The notes beneath the pieces are model-generated. The model was not told the origin of the DNA. It ran no database searches and worked only from the letters and a program-made list of their open reading frames with translations. The translations under genes were made by a program, and so were the position numbers. This document shows positions 31,651 through 45,843 of a stretch of DNA of 64,000 bases, piece by piece. The DNA is from a phage: the NCBI GenBank assembly GCA_012439925.1, contig GCA_012439925.1_4519.1, one strand, 5' to 3'. Positions within the stretch are counted from its first letter, which is position 1. Each line of letters begins with the position of its first letter.

Positions 31651-31902
31651 ATGAAAACACTAAATTTACTTAAGGTTGGGGAAGACATAGATATTGCTGA
31701 TATCTACAAAAATCTAACTTATTATGATAATTTATTTGTCGTTCAAACCTTAAATGGCGATTATTACACGGTTTCTTTAGTGCGAAATAAATTTAAAAAC
31801 AAATTTTACTTTTGTATTTATAATTATCATGGCCAACGCTCTAGCAATTATATTGAACCGTCTGACATATTTTATATTGAGGAATTAAAATGCTTAAATT
31901 AG
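31651..31902 (+). CDS. hypothetical small protein
   Basis: 83-aa ORF, RBS GAGGAAA. Confidence 0.45.
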   Translation: MKTLNLLKVGEDIDIADIYKNLTYYDNLFVVQTLNGDYYTVSLVRNKFKNKFYFCIYNYHGQRSSNYIEPSDIFYIEELKCLN

Positions 31903-32477
31903 TATTCGCATGCGCACCATCTAAAACAGTTGATGATAAACTGGAATATGCTTTTGGATTAGGTGATGGACTTCCATGGAAGCATATCAAACAAGATATG
32001 AGTAACTTTGTTGCTCGCACTAAAAACACTGTAATGGTTATGGGTGCTAAGACTTTTGCATCATTACCTCGTCTACTCCCAGATCGTACTCATGTAGTTG
32101 TCACCGATATGTCTAGAAAACTGCCTAGGACTAAAAGCGACGAACTTGCACGGTTCTATATCACCCAAGCAGAATTTATTACCCTGGTGACTGGTAGTGA
32201 AATTAACTTGTTCGGCCCTTCAACAGACGTACCATTTAAACTTTCTACTGAACATGTTGATGTATCTGTTATCGGTGGCCCGGCTCTATTAAAACAAGCA
32301 CTGCCTTATGCTGATGAAATTGTGATGACTAAAATCATTAAGAAATGTCGTGTTAATTCAGACGTTCAACTTGATAAAGATTTCATCCAAGATATTATGC
32401 TTCAACGTTCTATGGTAGAATCTCATTACTACAGAATCGATGAACTCACCGAAATTACTGAGAGCGTATATAAATGA
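31890..32477 (+). CDS. frd: dihydrofolate reductase
   Basis: 195 aa (T4 Frd 193 aa); AFGLGDGLPW, VMGAKTF and VIGGPALL motifs. Confidence 0.9.
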   Translation: MLKLVFACAPSKTVDDKLEYAFGLGDGLPWKHIKQDMSNFVARTKNTVMVMGAKTFASLPRLLPDRTHVVVTDMSRKLPRTKSDELARFYITQAEFITLVTGSEINLFGPSTDVPFKLSTEHVDVSVIGGPALLKQALPYADEIVMTKIIKKCRVNSDVQLDKDFIQDIMLQRSMVESHYYRIDELTEITESVYK

Positions 32478-33334
32478 AACAATACCAATACCTGATTAAT
32501 GATATCCTAGAAAATGGCTACGAAACAGACGACCGTACAGGCACAGGAACAATTGCCCTGTTCGGAACTAAATTACGTTGGGACCTGACTAAAGGATTCC
32601 CTGCAGTAACAACTAAGAAATTAGCATGGAAAGCTTGTATTGCCGAGTTACTGTGGTTCATGTCTGGTTCTACCAATGTTAATGATTTACGTATTCGTAC
32701 TCACGGTAGTCTTATTCAAGGTAAAACTATTTGGGACGACAACTATGAAAATCAGGCAAAAGACCTTGGATATCATAGCGGCGAACTTGGTCCTATTTAT
32801 GGTAAGCAATGGCGTGATTTTGGCGGTGTAGACCAATTGGTCAAAACTATCGACCGCATTAAAGCTCTTCCTAATGATCGTCGTCAAATAGTTTCTGCAT
32901 GGAATCCGGCCGAAATAAATCAAATGGCTCTTCCTCCTTGCCATATGTTCTATCAGTTCAATGTGCGTAATGGTCATCTTGATTTACAATGGTACCAGAG
33001 AAGTGTTGATGTTTTCTTGGGTTTGCCATTCAACATTGCCTCGTACGCTGCCTTGACTCATATTGTAGCTAAGATGTGTAATCTTATCCCGGGCGATTTA
33101 GTGTTCTCAGGCGGCAACACGCATATCTACAGCAATCATGTAGAACAATGCAAAGAAGTTCTTCGTCGTGAGCCTAAAGAACTGTGTGAACTTAAAATTG
33201 ATTGGCCTGAAGGATTCTCTGATTGGAGCACGACACTACAGCTTCATTGGGTAACAGAGCATATGAATCCGAGTGATTTCATTCTTAAAAATTACGAATC
33301 ACATCCAGCTATCAAAGCTAAAATGGCGGTATAA
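32474..33334 (+). CDS. td: thymidylate synthase, uninterrupted (no intron)
   Basis: 286 aa as in T4; active-site region LPPCHMFYQF; continuous ORF. Confidence 0.95.
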   Translation: MKQYQYLINDILENGYETDDRTGTGTIALFGTKLRWDLTKGFPAVTTKKLAWKACIAELLWFMSGSTNVNDLRIRTHGSLIQGKTIWDDNYENQAKDLGYHSGELGPIYGKQWRDFGGVDQLVKTIDRIKALPNDRRQIVSAWNPAEINQMALPPCHMFYQFNVRNGHLDLQWYQRSVDVFLGLPFNIASYAALTHIVAKMCNLIPGDLVFSGGNTHIYSNHVEQCKEVLRREPKELCELKIDWPEGFSDWSTTLQLHWVTEHMNPSDFILKNYESHPAIKAKMAV

Positions 33335-40550: not shown

Positions 40551-41636
<1,086 letters not shown>

Positions 41637-41637
<1 letters not shown>

Positions 41638-41828
41638 TGAAACGATTATATGAAGTGATTGAGGCCATAGAACAGCATAAAGAATATTTGTTTGTAGCCT
41701 GGCCTTTAGTAAATGGACAGTTCGGTATTGATGTGCTGGACTATGAGCATGAAGAACGTTTGGACGGTGGTATATTTGATAACGTCGACCAGGCAATTGA
41801 ATGGTTAAATGAAAACTATGTACGATAA
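41637..41828 (+). CDS. hypothetical small acidic protein
   Basis: 63-aa ORF, net charge about -9. Confidence 0.4.
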
Positions 41829-42033
41829 ACATCATGAAATCGAAGATGAAGCATACAAAATGCTTCGTAAACTAGTGGGACTTAATATGAGTCCTACATT
41901 AATCAACAAACTCGCAGGAATTCGTAATGATCTGAATACTCGTTACAAAGGCGAATATCATGTAGAGTTTGTTCCTGTAGGTGAACCGACCGAGCGATTT
42001 GTTGTTCGAGTTAAAGTAAATACTGTACACTGA
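41809..42033 (+). CDS. hypothetical small protein
   Basis: 74-aa ORF. Confidence 0.4.
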   Translation: MKTMYDKHHEIEDEAYKMLRKLVGLNMSPTLINKLAGIRNDLNTRYKGEYHVEFVPVGEPTERFVVRVKVNTVH

Positions 42034-42040
42034 GGTAATT

Positions 42041-42316
42041 ATGTTCCCAACTTATTCTGAAATTGTAAAGGTAGTCTTCAGTCAGATTATTGCTAATAAT
42101 ATGTTTGAAGTGCTTGATAATGCAGCCGAACTCAGAGTTCATGCTCAACTAACTCATGTACTCAATGCTTTGCTCCCAGACCAAGTAGATTCTATTGCTA
42201 TTACTCTTCTCCCTGGGTCTGCACACGTCATAGTGGTATTTGATCTTGACGGCGATTTAGTTATCCAATGTGATATCAATTTCGGTACACAAAAAATTGA
42301 ATGCAAAGCAATTTAA
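42041..42316 (+). CDS. hypothetical small acidic protein
   Basis: 91-aa ORF with RBS GAGGTAA. Confidence 0.45.
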   Translation: MFPTYSEIVKVVFSQIIANNMFEVLDNAAELRVHAQLTHVLNALLPDQVDSIAITLLPGSAHVIVVFDLDGDLVIQCDINFGTQKIECKAI

Positions 42317-42318
42317 TG

Positions 42319-42348
42319 GTTTACAACATGGTGGAGTTGTGATACTAT
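42319..42348 (+). promoter_or_regulatory. T4-type early promoter
   Basis: GTTTAC 42319-42324, 18-bp spacer, TACTAT 42343-42348. Confidence 0.55.
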
Positions 42349-42376
42349 AACTCTACCAACAAATGAGGAAATAGAA

Positions 42377-42613
42377 ATGCTAAGTGAAAACCCAATTACA
42401 GTACACGAATTTCAGATTAAAGTAAAAGAATTTGCTCAAGCACTCATCAATAAAGTGTCTGAACGTTTCCAAGATGCAACATTACGAGTTATTCAAGAAT
42501 CTCCACGTTCTTTTCTCATAATCGTTAATCCTAAAGATGGTGACCAAATTACTAATCTTAAATTAGGCAGTGATGGTCTTGTTGAAGCAACTCGAGTATA
42601 TGGAACACTATAA
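42377..42613 (+). CDS. hypothetical small protein
   Basis: 78-aa ORF, RBS GAGGAAA. Confidence 0.45.
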   Translation: MLSENPITVHEFQIKVKEFAQALINKVSERFQDATLRVIQESPRSFLIIVNPKDGDQITNLKLGSDGLVEATRVYGTL

Positions 42614-42733
42614 TGAGAGCTATCTCATTACTATCGAGAATGGTCATAAATCTGAGCACTACCAACTTAGCCTATCTAATCCGGTTAAAGGTATTGTTGA
42701 ATCAGAATCTGTTTATATCTCCTAAGGATTGTT

Positions 42734-43726
42734 ATGTTACCTGTCATCAGAAAACTTATTTCTCCAAAAGAACTGGCTGAGATTATTCCTTTGTCGGAAG
42801 CTTACGCATCACAAGTGGCTTCTCATCGCGAACAAGTTAATTCGATTATGAACGGTGAAGACCCACGCAAACTTATTGTTGTAGGTCCTTGTTCAATTCA
42901 TGACCCTATTGCTGCTGTTGAATACGGCAAACGTCTGGCTGAACTTCAAACTCGTCTTCCTAATGTTCTGTTAGTGATGCGCGTTTATTTTGAAAAGCCT
43001 CGAACTACCGTAGGTTGGAAAGGTCTTGTAAATGATCCATATCTTGACGGAAGTTTTGATATGAACCACGGTCTTATAGTTGCACGAACATTGTGTCGTA
43101 AACTTCTACGTATGGGACTTCCATTAGCAACTGAAGTATTAGACCCATTCACGATTAAGTATCTTTCTGGTATTTTCTCATGGGTTGCTATTGGCGCCCG
43201 TACGACTGAAAGTCAGACACATCGTGAAATTGCTTCAGGTCTACCGATGTGCGTAGGCTTCAAGAACGCAACCAATGGTTCTATTAAAGTAGCTACAGAC
43301 GCGATGTATAGTGCCGCCTGGCCTCATCGGTATATGGGTATGGACGTCGATGGTACTGTAGGCATTGTTGAAGCTGAAGGTAATCAGAATACGCATATCG
43401 TATTGCGTGGCGGGACCAACGGCCCGAACTATCATTCTTCTGATATTCAAGAAGCTTCTAACAAAGCAAGGGCAGTAGGTCTGAATCATTATGTAATGGT
43501 TGACTGTAGCCATGCAAACGCTGATGGGCATTATAGCAATCAAATTGGTATTGGTAAAAATTTAGCAGCTAATGATTTGGTCAAAGGAATTATGATAGAA
43601 TCATTCCTACATGAAGGAAATCAAAAAATTTCCGATAATATGTCCTATGGCGTTTCCGTTACCGATGCGTGCATCAGTTGGGAACAAACTAAAGAGCTGT
43701 TAACTTATATTAATAAGGTTCAATAA
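42734..43726 (+). CDS. class I 3-deoxy-D-arabino-heptulosonate-7-phosphate (DAHP) synthase, AroG/AroF/AroH-like
   Basis: 330 aa; signature motifs GPCSIHD, RVYFEKPRTTVGWKGL, GARTTESQ, DCSHAN, ESFLHEGNQ and DACISWE, with metal ligands (Cys, His, Glu, Asp) in place; shorter than E. coli AroG (350 aa), including at the N-terminus. Confidence 0.8.
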   Translation: MLPVIRKLISPKELAEIIPLSEAYASQVASHREQVNSIMNGEDPRKLIVVGPCSIHDPIAAVEYGKRLAELQTRLPNVLLVMRVYFEKPRTTVGWKGLVNDPYLDGSFDMNHGLIVARTLCRKLLRMGLPLATEVLDPFTIKYLSGIFSWVAIGARTTESQTHREIASGLPMCVGFKNATNGSIKVATDAMYSAAWPHRYMGMDVDGTVGIVEAEGNQNTHIVLRGGTNGPNYHSSDIQEASNKARAVGLNHYVMVDCSHANADGHYSNQIGIGKNLAANDLVKGIMIESFLHEGNQKISDNMSYGVSVTDACISWEQTKELLTYINKVQ

Positions 43727-44307
43727 TGAAAGCTAGCACATACCTTCAGATTGCATATCTGATTTCTCAAGAATCAAAATGTTGTTCATGGAAAGTTGGC
43801 GCAGTCATTGAAAAAGATGGGCGCATTATTTCTACTGGGTATAACGGTTCACCTGCAGGTGGCGTTAACTGTTGCGAACATGCATCTGAAAATGGTTGGT
43901 TGAAGAATAAACCAATCCCAGTCATCGTTGCTGGGCATAAAGAAGGCACTACAGCATTTGGACGGGCCGATAATTTTGTTTTGGCTAAAGAACATCGGGC
44001 TGCTCATAGTGCATGGTCTGCCAATAACGAAATCCATGCGGAACTGAATGCAATTTTGTTTGCAGCTCGTAAAGGTAATTCTATTGAAGGTGCTACGTTG
44101 TATACGACACTTTCTCCATGTCCTGATTGCACTAAAGCTATTACACAGTCAGGTATTAAAAAGGTTGTATATGCAGAATTATATGACCGATCTCCTGAAA
44201 ATTGGGCAGACATTCTTAAACAAGCTGGTATTGAAGTAATTCAGTACTCTCGTAATAATCTTCGTTCTCTGAATTGGGAACAAATCCGAAACTTTTGTGG
44301 TGAATAA
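43726..44307 (+). CDS. cd: dCMP deaminase
   Basis: 193 aa as in T4; zinc-binding HAE and SPCPDC motifs. Confidence 0.95.
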   Translation: MKASTYLQIAYLISQESKCCSWKVGAVIEKDGRIISTGYNGSPAGGVNCCEHASENGWLKNKPIPVIVAGHKEGTTAFGRADNFVLAKEHRAAHSAWSANNEIHAELNAILFAARKGNSIEGATLYTTLSPCPDCTKAITQSGIKKVVYAELYDRSPENWADILKQAGIEVIQYSRNNLRSLNWEQIRNFCGE

Positions 44308-44308
44308 T

Positions 44309-44605
44309 ATGATTTTAACTGAACAAGAAACTATGGTTCTTCGTGAACGTATTAAAACTATTCTGTCTGTAGGCGTTCATTGTGTTGTATTTGAAAAGGC
44401 TAACGGTGATGTTCGTACGATGTTTGCCTCCCGTGATGAACTTGAAGTCAAATACGAAAATAACAATCCGGCAACAGAAGTTCGTTCTGAACCTCGTGAA
44501 TCAGTTCGAGCATTCGATACCAAGTTAGGTCAGTGGCGTTCTTTCCGCCTTGATAAAGTAATTTCGGTTGATGGTACTCCGGTAGAACGTTTGCTTCTTA
44601 TGTAA
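44309..44605 (+). CDS. hypothetical protein
   Basis: 98 aa from ATG just after the cd stop. Confidence 0.45.
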   Translation: MILTEQETMVLRERIKTILSVGVHCVVFEKANGDVRTMFASRDELEVKYENNNPATEVRSEPRESVRAFDTKLGQWRSFRLDKVISVDGTPVERLLLM

Positions 44606-44662
44606 TATGCTTTACGAATAGTATGGTATTATTAATCTATCGTCAAACAACAAGGAAATAAG

Positions 44663-44995
44663 ATGTCTGAAGTACAACTCCCAATTCGTGCTGTTGGTGA
44701 ATATGTCATTCTGGTTTCTGAACCCGCTCAAGCAGGTGATGAAGAAGTTACCGAATCAGGACTTGTGATTGGTAAACGTGTTCAAGGTGAAGTTCCTGAA
44801 CTATGTATAGTTCATTCTGTAGGTCCTGATGTTCCTGAAGGTTTTGTTGAAGTCGGTGATTTGACTCCACTACCAGTTGGACAAATTCGAAATGTTCCAC
44901 ATCCATTTGTGGCTTTAGGACTTAAACAACCTAAAGAAATTAAACAGAAATTCGTAACATGCCACTATAAAGCTATTCCGTGTCTTTATAAGTGA
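44663..44995 (+). CDS. 31: co-chaperonin gp31 (GroES analogue for capsid folding)
   Basis: 110 aa; near-identical to T4 gp31 as recalled. Confidence 0.9.
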
Positions 44996-45368: not shown

Positions 45369-45663
45369 GTTTTAGGTGATTCGCTACCTTAAGTGCGGCT
45401 AGAAAATCGAGGAGCCGTCGAACTGTCTGATTAATGATTTGCGAATCATTATAGTTTTAAGGCCCCGGCAGTTTTACGGTGTACCTCTTGAATGTATTTT
45501 GTACTATCACGCGTCAGAAAAAGGTTATCTGTCTAAGTCGTGGTTGGTATGATGACGGGTTTATGGTTATCCTGTCGTTAAATATCCAAAACCTATGTTC
45601 CCCTTGAGGGCTTGCGCAGGCAATGTCAATAAGTCCTGCATTTTCATTTAAAGAGAATTTATA

Positions 45664-45843
45664 ATGGCAAAACAAGCTAAAGCAAAGAAAGCAGTTGAAA
45701 AGAAAGTTGATGGTACCTCTAAACGCGCTGGATACAAGCGTGGGTCGAACTCTCGTATTAATCAAACAGTTGAGAAGATCATGCGCAGAGCACGTGCAGT
45801 TCTTCGAGATGATGCTTCTCGTTTTGGAAAGGTTGTTGCATAA
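45664..45843 (+). CDS. small highly basic protein (59 aa)
   Basis: Not in ORF track; Lys/Arg-rich (MAKQAKAKKAVEKKVDGTSKRAGYKRGSNSR...); ends 5 bp before a strong terminator. Confidence 0.45.
   Translation: MAKQAKAKKAVEKKVDGTSKRAGYKRGSNSRINQTVEKIMRRARAVLRDDASRFGKVVA

Follow-up and report, generated by a model that had tools for sequence, protein, structure and literature searches.

A phage DAHP synthase whose inhibitor site is remodelled across a T4-like clade

[quoted passage not shown] These questions are raised by an open reading frame (ORF) in the 64,000-nucleotide stretch of phage DNA analysed here (GenBank assembly GCA_012439925.1, contig GCA_012439925.1_4519.1; hereafter, the window), which sits between homologues of the T4 genes cd.2 and cd. 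A previous reading, made from the letters and their ORFs without database searches (the sequence-only reading), had assigned the ORF to DAHP synthase and guessed that it might escape feedback inhibition. Our comparisons indicate an intact active site joined to a regulatory site that has been rebuilt throughout a clade of phage enzymes.

An intact active site

The features that define the gene are as follows.
42734..43726, + strand: coding sequence of a type I-alpha DAHP synthase (330 residues; ATG start, TAA stop), from the ORF list and family profiles
42724..42728, + strand: Shine–Dalgarno sequence AAGGA, with the ATG 5 nt downstream, read from the sequence
42890-42892, 43511-43513, 43598-43600 and 43664-43666, + strand: codons of the metal ligands C53, H260, E289 and D311

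Matches far beyond chance place the protein in the AroF/AroG/AroH family, to which it had been assigned from the letters. It matches Pfam PF00793 (E=5e-75, 252 bits; cutoff 25.5), the NCBIfam aroFGH equivalog TIGR00034 (428.5 bits; cutoff 173.2) and the subfamily model NF009395 (455.9 bits; cutoff 343), and fails the isozyme-specific NCBIfam models for AroH (NF009396, 386.7 bits; cutoff 463) and AroG (NF006723, 364.5 bits; cutoff 568). The best match in the PDB is Escherichia coli AroF (6agm, E=4e-105, residues 8-327). The PHROG family phrog_5045, which is in the auxiliary metabolic gene (AMG) category, aligns with residues 1-330 over profile positions 8-337 of 341 (E=2.5e-182).

The catalytic motifs that had been quoted were all recovered in place by the ORF list, a motif check and alignment to AroG: GPCSIHD (residues 51-57), KPRT (88-91), GARTTESQ (154-161), CSHAN (258-262), ESFLHEGNQ (289-297) and DACISWE (311-317). 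In an alignment with E. coli AroG, AroF and AroH (from MG1655) and eight phage homologues, C53, H260, E289 and D311 correspond to the AroG metal ligands C61, H268, E302 and D326, and they are kept in 25/25 sequences of the phage clade described below. Residues R83, K88, R90, R156, K177 and R225 are those assigned to phosphoenolpyruvate (PEP) and erythrose-4-phosphate (E4P). The AroG PEP residues R92, K97, A164, R165, K186 and R234 are retained as phage R83, K88, A155, R156, K177 and R225, as is the E4P phosphate motif K88-P89-R90-T91 (AroG K97-T100). The four metal ligands, the six PEP residues and KPRT are conserved across all of the phage homologues aligned. Judged by these residues, the ORF encodes a type I-alpha DAHP synthase whose active site is intact, and the product is predicted to be a catalytically competent, metal-dependent enzyme that makes DAHP from PEP and E4P.

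The protein had been estimated to be about 20 residues shorter than AroG, partly at the N terminus. The alignment gives exactly 20 (AroG has 350 residues), of which 8 are N-terminal and the remainder fall in two internal loops and at the C terminus. The short N terminus is real, because the window has no further in-frame ATG, GTG or TTG upstream of the start. The beta6a/6b segment (residues 200-214) aligns without gaps, and the N-terminal extension is present, shortened by 8-11 residues.

A remodelled inhibitor-binding site

Four features, all placed by alignment to E. coli AroG, locate the regulatory site.
43154..43174, + strand: inhibitor-site loop, with I141-K142 (AroG P150-Q151) and G146-I147 (AroG D155-L156)
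43157-43159, + strand: codon of K142 (AroG Q151)
43244..43246, + strand: codon of P171 (AroG S180, AroF S181), Pro in 24/24 phage sequences versus Ser in 97/99 bacterial ones
43331..43375, + strand: beta6a/6b regulatory hairpin, with Y200 (AroG F209), G202 (AroG S211) and A214 (AroG T223)

We searched a space of 5.8 billion proteins for homologues. The phage enzymes form 25 cluster representatives of 319-343 residues, 55-100% identical to the query, and all those that could be placed lie in T4-like contexts; the next nearest proteins are bacterial enzymes of 341-388 residues with 50-55% identity. In a neighbour-joining tree, the 25 phage sequences are monophyletic, on a long stem that adjoins AroF-like bacterial sequences. 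The distance from the N terminus to GPCS is 46-51 residues in the 25 phage sequences, versus 56-93 in bacteria. The phage enzymes begin at about AroG residue 10, with 8-11 N-terminal residues gone and the equivalents of AroG D6 and D7 absent. On this alignment, the clade has lost the N-terminal lid that caps the inhibitor site.

We then scanned the whole alignment (25 phage and 98 bacterial sequences) for fixed differences, defined as columns that hold a single residue in at least 90% of phage sequences and a different one in at least 85% of bacterial sequences. Only seven columns qualified, AroG P150I, Q151K, D155G, L156I, S180P, F209Y and T223A, and all seven are within inhibitor-binding elements. 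Five of these are among the 11 feedback-site positions compiled from the literature (PMC9529685; hypergeometric p = 2e-7), and the remaining two, L156 and T223, adjoin D155 and V221. The canonical Pro150, Gln151, Ser180 and Phe209 are 93-100% conserved in the 98 bacterial homologues, at columns where the phage protein has I141, K142, P171 and Y200. The Gly at position 202 is the residue of the Tyr-type enzymes AroF and Aro4.

In the cellular enzymes, AroG Q151 and S180 (AroF Q152 and S181), the Ser by its side chain, contact the main chain of the inhibitor, and D155 stabilizes the region of the inhibitor site; the AroG variant P150L is completely feedback-resistant, and S180F and F209A/S are feedback-resistant as well (PMC9529685). 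Yeast Aro4 Q166 (sequence from PDB 1hfb) occupies the same column as AroG Q151 and phage K142, so the phage residue reproduces the Gln-to-Lys change of ARO4 Q166K, an allele used in yeast engineering as a feedback-insensitive DAHP synthase. A salt bridge between AroG 'K127' and D155 is cited in the same review (PMC9529685); position 127 in our alignment is an invariant Arg in phages and bacteria, and we claim no co-variation. Because the N-terminal lid is lost and the pocket residues that hold the amino-acid moiety are replaced, the enzyme is probably insensitive to feedback by Phe, Tyr and Trp. The sequence-only reading had based its guess of insensitivity on the N-terminal truncation, and these alignments strengthen it by adding pocket substitutions at feedback-resistance positions.

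Two deep-branching members of the clade have intermediate pockets. One (P0022; L096:2517-3515, from a crustacean metagenome) keeps Pro150 and Leu156 and already has K, G, P, Y and A at the other positions; the second (P0020; L098:6001-7032) has Arg151 and Asn155. The succession of changes at the regulatory site may be preserved in these pockets.

The altered pocket is present in 10/10 T4-like loci in IMG/VR. We also considered whether all virus-borne DAHP synthases lose the canonical pocket and rejected this idea, as about 50 other IMG/VR loci keep P-Q-D-L..S..F..T. These canonical 'viral' enzymes come mostly from giant-virus bins, plus AroF-like contigs. The roughly 50 contigs from giant-virus metagenome-assembled genomes (GVMAGs; L032-L094, for example, L047:4001-5005 and L039:4001-4975) encode enzymes that are 40-48% identical to the query, with canonical pockets and long N termini, and these could be real metabolic genes of nucleocytoplasmic large DNA viruses or bin contamination. 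Outside the T4-like clade, the pocket is altered in Aeromonas phage HJ05 and in one unverified faecal contig. HJ05 (79 kb, not T4-like; L011:3899-5062) encodes an independently diverged protein of 387 residues with 38% identity, a long N-terminal extension and intact catalytic residues, in which the same positions carry P150A, Q151H, D155P, S180P and F209V.

Distribution and previous annotation

The gene itself is already known, and the sequence-only reading overstated its novelty: upwards of 200 phage records already annotate it, PHROGs includes it as a family and one paper notes it as an AMG. By tblastn, we found homologues in 213 GenBank phage records, the majority with a DAHP synthase annotation; 140 are at least 95% identical and the others 58-77%. 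The more distant group is found in Kanagawavirus, Winklervirus, Marfavirus, Bragavirus and other T4-like phages, the hosts of which are Klebsiella, Serratia, Erwinia, Edwardsiella, Enterobacter and Proteus. GenBank entries named 'phospho-2-dehydro-3-deoxyheptonate aldolase' (FP43 QGT55367.1, JS09 YP_009037555.1 and PEi20 YP_009190391.1) are of the same family at the same locus. The homologue in Klebsiella phage KLB31 has been listed as an AMG, with a proposed role in aromatic amino-acid supply (PMC11845039). The window ORF is an ordinary member of this family, and neither phrog_5045, the GenBank records nor the KLB31 paper mentions an altered regulatory site. The new element, as judged from the alignments, is the clade-wide remodelling of that site, including a natural substitution of the ARO4-Q166K type.

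The protein is 100% identical to those of the phages FP43, NBG1 and AV117. Over a 2.4-kb region around the gene, the DNA matches Escherichia phage FP43 at 100% identity and many Mosigvirus records at 98-99.6%. Outside this region, the window and FP43 are 74-98% identical, and the best tail-fibre match is to PECP20 (98.9%). By these identities, the window is a mosaic Mosigvirus, distinct from FP43.

One candidate for an independent phage copy, aroF_2 of 'Acinetobacter phage MD-2021a' (47.6% identity; CAKLQH020000056.1), was rejected, as its neighbours (cobS, a histidine phosphatase and phpB) mark a bacterial contig. Its regulatory site is canonical.

Acquisition of the cassette

The gene lies in a short cassette with the following parts and flanks.
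42377..42613, + strand: cd.2 homologue (78 residues, DUF7320), the resident Mosigvirus copy and left flank (PF24005, E=1.5e-35; phrog_1504)
42600..42725, + strand: ORF of 41 residues (orf41), the C-terminal end left over from a second cd.2 of foreign origin and the left-hand scar of the cassette (E=1.2e-6 to DUF7320, covering positions 44-76 of 78 in the profile)
42629..43722: about 1.1 kb with no counterpart in RB69, a phage of the same genus (blastn versus RB69)
43726..44307, + strand: deoxycytidine monophosphate (dCMP) deaminase gene cd (193 residues), the right flank (PF00383, E=1.5e-26; phrog_174)

The boundaries are sharp. By blastn, window positions 41401-42628 align with positions 2-1231 of the RB69 locus, and 43723-44900 with 1213-2393, the two alignments overlapping by 19 nt in RB69, where cd.2 abuts cd directly. 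The insertion is flanked by 13-nt repeats, ATAATGAGAGCTA (42610-42622) and ATAATGAAAGCTA (43723-43735), each of which comprises a stop/start overlap followed by the first codons of cd. The cd.2 of the window is collinear with those of RB69 and T4, and orf41 is absent from RB69; orf41 is identical to Kanagawavirus PEi20 Cd.2 at 18/32 positions, versus 10/31 for the resident Cd.2. Between FP43 and SF, the block of cd.2, orf41 and the DAHP synthase gene is 99-100% identical, with cd.3 (71%) and cd (94.5%) on either side. Because a foreign cd.2 remnant is present and the block is nearly identical amid diverged neighbours, we conclude from these comparisons that recombination with another T4-like lineage brought the cassette into the JS09-type Mosigviruses, among which it has probably spread recently. 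Loss from RB69, the converse explanation, was rejected, as the foreign cd.2 remnant favours gain. When the window (42377-43726) was set against the SF and JS09 loci, similarly sharp mosaicism within Mosigvirus was seen relative to SF, with 99.3-100% identity in the block, 90% in pseT, 71% in cd.3 and 94.5% in cd.

The sequence-only reading was right that this is not a T4 gene and that it lies among the small cd.x ORFs; more exactly, it occupies the cd.1 slot between cd.2 and cd. In T4, the slot is filled by cd.1, and in RB69 by nothing. The T4 cargo is a small phage-specific ORF, whereas here the slot holds a 330-residue metabolic enzyme of cellular origin. The cassette keeps the stop/start overlap with cd, at a site of plasticity between conserved early genes of T-even phages. 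The slot continues to gather cargo; Winklervirus CHI14 (L009:3498-3839) and Bragavirus PM2 (L010:3457-4016) have one or two extra small ORFs between the DAHP synthase gene and cd.

Despite this mobility within one genus, the genera examined all share one gene order (pseT ... cd.3-cd.2-DAHP synthase-(0-2 small ORFs)-cd-31.x-31-rIII). Identity to the SF, PEi20, CHI14, PM2 and Marfa proteins is 98/76/67/58/66% for DAHP synthase, 99/83/70/65/79% for cd and 99/78/66/45/66% for gp31. The ratio of nonsynonymous to synonymous substitution rates (dN/dS) of the DAHP synthase gene between genera is 0.16-0.20, a range like that of the flanking cd and pseT and one obtained at saturated dS. The gene is under purifying selection, and its divergence tracks that of the flanking core genes.

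Neighbouring genes and expression signals

Two further features bear on when the gene might be expressed.
42319..42348, + strand: early-promoter-like site upstream of cd.2, GTTTACA-17 nt-TACTAT, TG-extended (consensus scan, 9/12 + TG)
40738..41637: pseT, with polynucleotide kinase and phosphatase (PNKP) domains

The order of genes upstream is pseT, cd.4, a homologue of RB69ORF227c, cd.3 (DUF7355) and cd.2 (DUF7320), and nrdA, nrdB, frd (31890..32477) and td (32474..33334) lie 6-11 kb upstream of the DAHP synthase gene, the last two within the window as had been noted. The GTTTAC[AT] motif of T4 early-type promoters occurs at just two sites within 40-44.4 kb, 42319-42348 and 40193, and the annotation of T4 has the early promoter Pe133295 between cd.3 and cd.2, the homologous place. 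The 42319-42348 site is thus a putative promoter that likely starts a transcript of cd.2, orf41, the DAHP synthase gene and cd. The position of the gene directly upstream of the dCMP deaminase gene, also claimed in the sequence-only reading, is borne out by the PF00383 and phrog_174 matches and by the overlap of the DAHP synthase TAA with the cd ATG as TAATG. This arrangement indicates that cd is translationally coupled to the DAHP synthase stop codon.

Several annotations in related records differ from what we see here. Read from the GTG at 40738, pseT encodes 299 residues, and its kinase domain (AAA_33, from residue 5 onward) is complete; in the FP43 record, the homologue starts at an internal ATG (locus 40861), which cuts the P-loop region. 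The same record names a 59-residue T4 30.9 homologue (45663-45842; window, about 45664-45843) 'glycogen branching enzyme GH-13' and a gp31.1 homologue (phrog_1086; 44309-44605; window, 44297-44605) 'tail fibers protein'. RB69 cd is annotated as 510 nt (169 residues; L006:1216-1725), versus 582 nt (193 residues) in the window and in T4. The alignment of RB69 cd with that of the window has three gap openings, which may reflect a frameshift in RB69 or a difference in annotation.

A possible role and its alternatives

We hypothesize that the early-type promoter upstream of cd.2 probably has the gene transcribed before replication, within a cluster of nucleotide-precursor genes, and that the enzyme would be translated in tandem with dCMP deaminase. 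If insensitive to feedback, it would force carbon into shikimate metabolism once the host has been shut off. Host transcription ceases on T-even infection, and the other enzymes of the shikimate pathway are largely constitutive; when aromatic amino acids are abundant, TyrR/TrpR repress aroG and aroF. In E. coli, AroG provides about 80% and AroF about 20% of DAHP synthase activity, and both are feedback-inhibited (PMC5879953). One deregulated phage gene would therefore suffice to increase the flow toward chorismate and aromatic amino acids, because DAHP synthase controls the flux and the host isozymes are feedback-inhibited and not newly made after shut-off. This would supply virion production with Phe, Tyr and Trp, and perhaps with folate or quinones derived from chorismate; Phe, Tyr and Trp together make up 10.1% of the FP43 proteins that are homologous to the window region. 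That the gene encodes an active, early-expressed, Phe/Tyr/Trp-insensitive enzyme that raises aromatic flux is, on present evidence, a reasonably probable reading. In it we infer enzyme activity, inhibitor insensitivity, timing of expression and benefit to the phage alike.

Several points weigh against this reading. The gene is dispensable, given that it is lacking in RB69 and in every Tequatrovirus (T4), phages that grow on the same hosts. The promoter is a match to a consensus, and the region has 15 promoter-like sites versus 15.6 in shuffled sequence. The effects of the Q-to-K, S-to-P and P-to-I changes are extrapolated from P150L, S180F and yeast Q166K, and the literature that we searched held no biochemical or genetic study of any phage DAHP synthase. 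The substituted residues are also invariant or nearly so (K 24/25, P 25/25, I 24/25, Y 25/25 and A 25/25) among proteins whose overall identity ranges over 56-100%, and segment 136-180 is conserved at 94-100% in phages versus 79-97% in bacteria. Simple loss of a site predicts no such invariance, which could instead reflect a new effector or a structural role. An active enzyme might thus still be allosteric, with flux tied to the state of infection through another ligand, such as chorismate, prephenate, a nucleotide of the deoxynucleoside triphosphate (dNTP) pathway or a phage protein. The invariance and the conservation of 136-180 speak for constraint rather than decay, the new Lys142 brings a positive charge into the pocket, and in every genus examined the gene lies beside, and is coupled to, that of the allosteric dCMP deaminase. 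We nevertheless consider this unlikely. None of the data indicates a candidate ligand, an identical Gln-to-Lys change in yeast Aro4 just abolishes inhibition and the N-terminal lid, with which the neighbouring subunit completes the site, is gone; the conservation may instead reflect packing that holds the beta6a/6b-helix region in an active conformation, and the plasticity slot, which holds cd.1 in T4 and no cargo in RB69, accounts for the position next to cd. The more specific proposal, that Lys142, Pro171, Ile141, Gly146, Tyr200 and Ala214 bind a non-aromatic effector (a metabolite of the chorismate branch or a phage-specific nucleotide) and form a virus-evolved switch linking shikimate flux to the infection programme, is quite speculative and unlikelier still.

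The remaining alternatives concern what the enzyme is for. On this the sequence-only reading, which weighed folate against aromatic amino acids, was also too strong, as the downstream purpose is speculative. It might be valued for chorismate-derived cofactors (p-aminobenzoate and folate for td, frd and the hydroxymethylase, or quinones) or as a drain on PEP and E4P. T-even phages rely heavily on folate for the synthesis of thymidylate (dTMP) and hydroxymethyl-dCMP, and frd, td, nrdAB and cd belong to the same early cluster, so that DAHP synthase would be co-transcribed with nucleotide-precursor enzymes. However, the need for folate is only catalytic, neither pab nor fol genes occur with the DAHP synthase gene in the window or the compared loci, most shikimate flux in E. 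coli goes to Phe, Tyr and Trp, and T4 and RB69, which lack the gene, carry out the same folate-dependent reactions; a main role in cofactor supply or as a drain is accordingly unlikely. The gene might also be a passenger (a 'moron') of little or no use to the phage, kept only by a recombination-prone slot between conserved genes. This would fit its presence and absence within one genus, the different cargo of the slot in different phages and the identity of the FP43/SF block, which, being far above that of its neighbours, implies that the cassette moves by recombination. We regard this as very improbable, as the gene is intact with all catalytic residues in 25/25 representatives and 213 GenBank records, occurs in at least six genera (Mosig-, Kanagawa-, Winkler-, Marfa- and Bragavirus, and uncultured lineages), has a dN/dS of about 0.16-0.2 with divergence parallel to that of core genes, and no pseudogenized copy was seen among these sequences. 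Least likely of all is a role in making another sugar acid, either in the manner of 3-deoxy-D-manno-octulosonate 8-phosphate (KDO8P) synthase or from a different aldose phosphate, for example for DNA or surface modification. PF00793 spans both enzymes, and Mosigviruses are known for unusual sugar modification of their DNA. The protein, however, passes the aroFGH equivalog, has KPRT instead of a KANRS-type motif, keeps the metal-binding Cys and is 51% identical to AroF over its full length, and no KdsA family is among its NCBIfam matches at E<=0.01. The earlier preference for DAHP synthase therefore holds, and closer homology to KDO8P synthase is excluded. A link to arabinosyl-hydroxymethylcytosine DNA modification was dropped, as RB69, the reference phage for this modification, lacks the gene.

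If a whole clade of T4-like phages does carry a naturally feedback-insensitive DAHP synthase, a virus would have seized the one step that controls flux in an amino-acid pathway and stripped it of its regulation, providing a testable example of an AMG adapted after capture. Pairs of phages with and without the gene (JS09/FP43-type versus RB69) are a near-ready system for measuring its worth, with the proviso that their genomes differ elsewhere too. Feedback-resistant DAHP synthases are standard parts in metabolic engineering, and a compact variant, tried out by evolution, with seven co-adapted substitutions could be directly useful.

Comparison with known DAHP synthases

The closest characterized counterpart is the Tyr-sensitive E. 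coli AroF (PDB 6agm/6agl), which is 51% identical over the full length and has the same metal, PEP and E4P residues. The phage enzyme shares AroF-type residues at AroG positions 147 (Pro) and 211 (Gly). It is 26 residues shorter than AroF and lacks the first approximately nine residues, including AroF N8 and the residues before I11, and in place of AroF P151, Q152, D156, L157, S181, F210 and T224 it has I, K, G, I, P, Y and A.

Known feedback-resistant enzymes include AroG P150L, S180F and F209A/S, AroF P148L, and yeast ARO4 K229L and Q166K. The AroG variants and ARO4 Q166K share positions with the phage changes (AroG 150, 151, 180 and 209), and for ARO4 Q166K the amino-acid change, Gln to Lys, is identical. 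Those mutants are single laboratory mutations, whereas the phage clade combines seven fixed changes with an N-terminal truncation, selected over deep divergence, and would on this comparison be insensitive to the same inhibitors.

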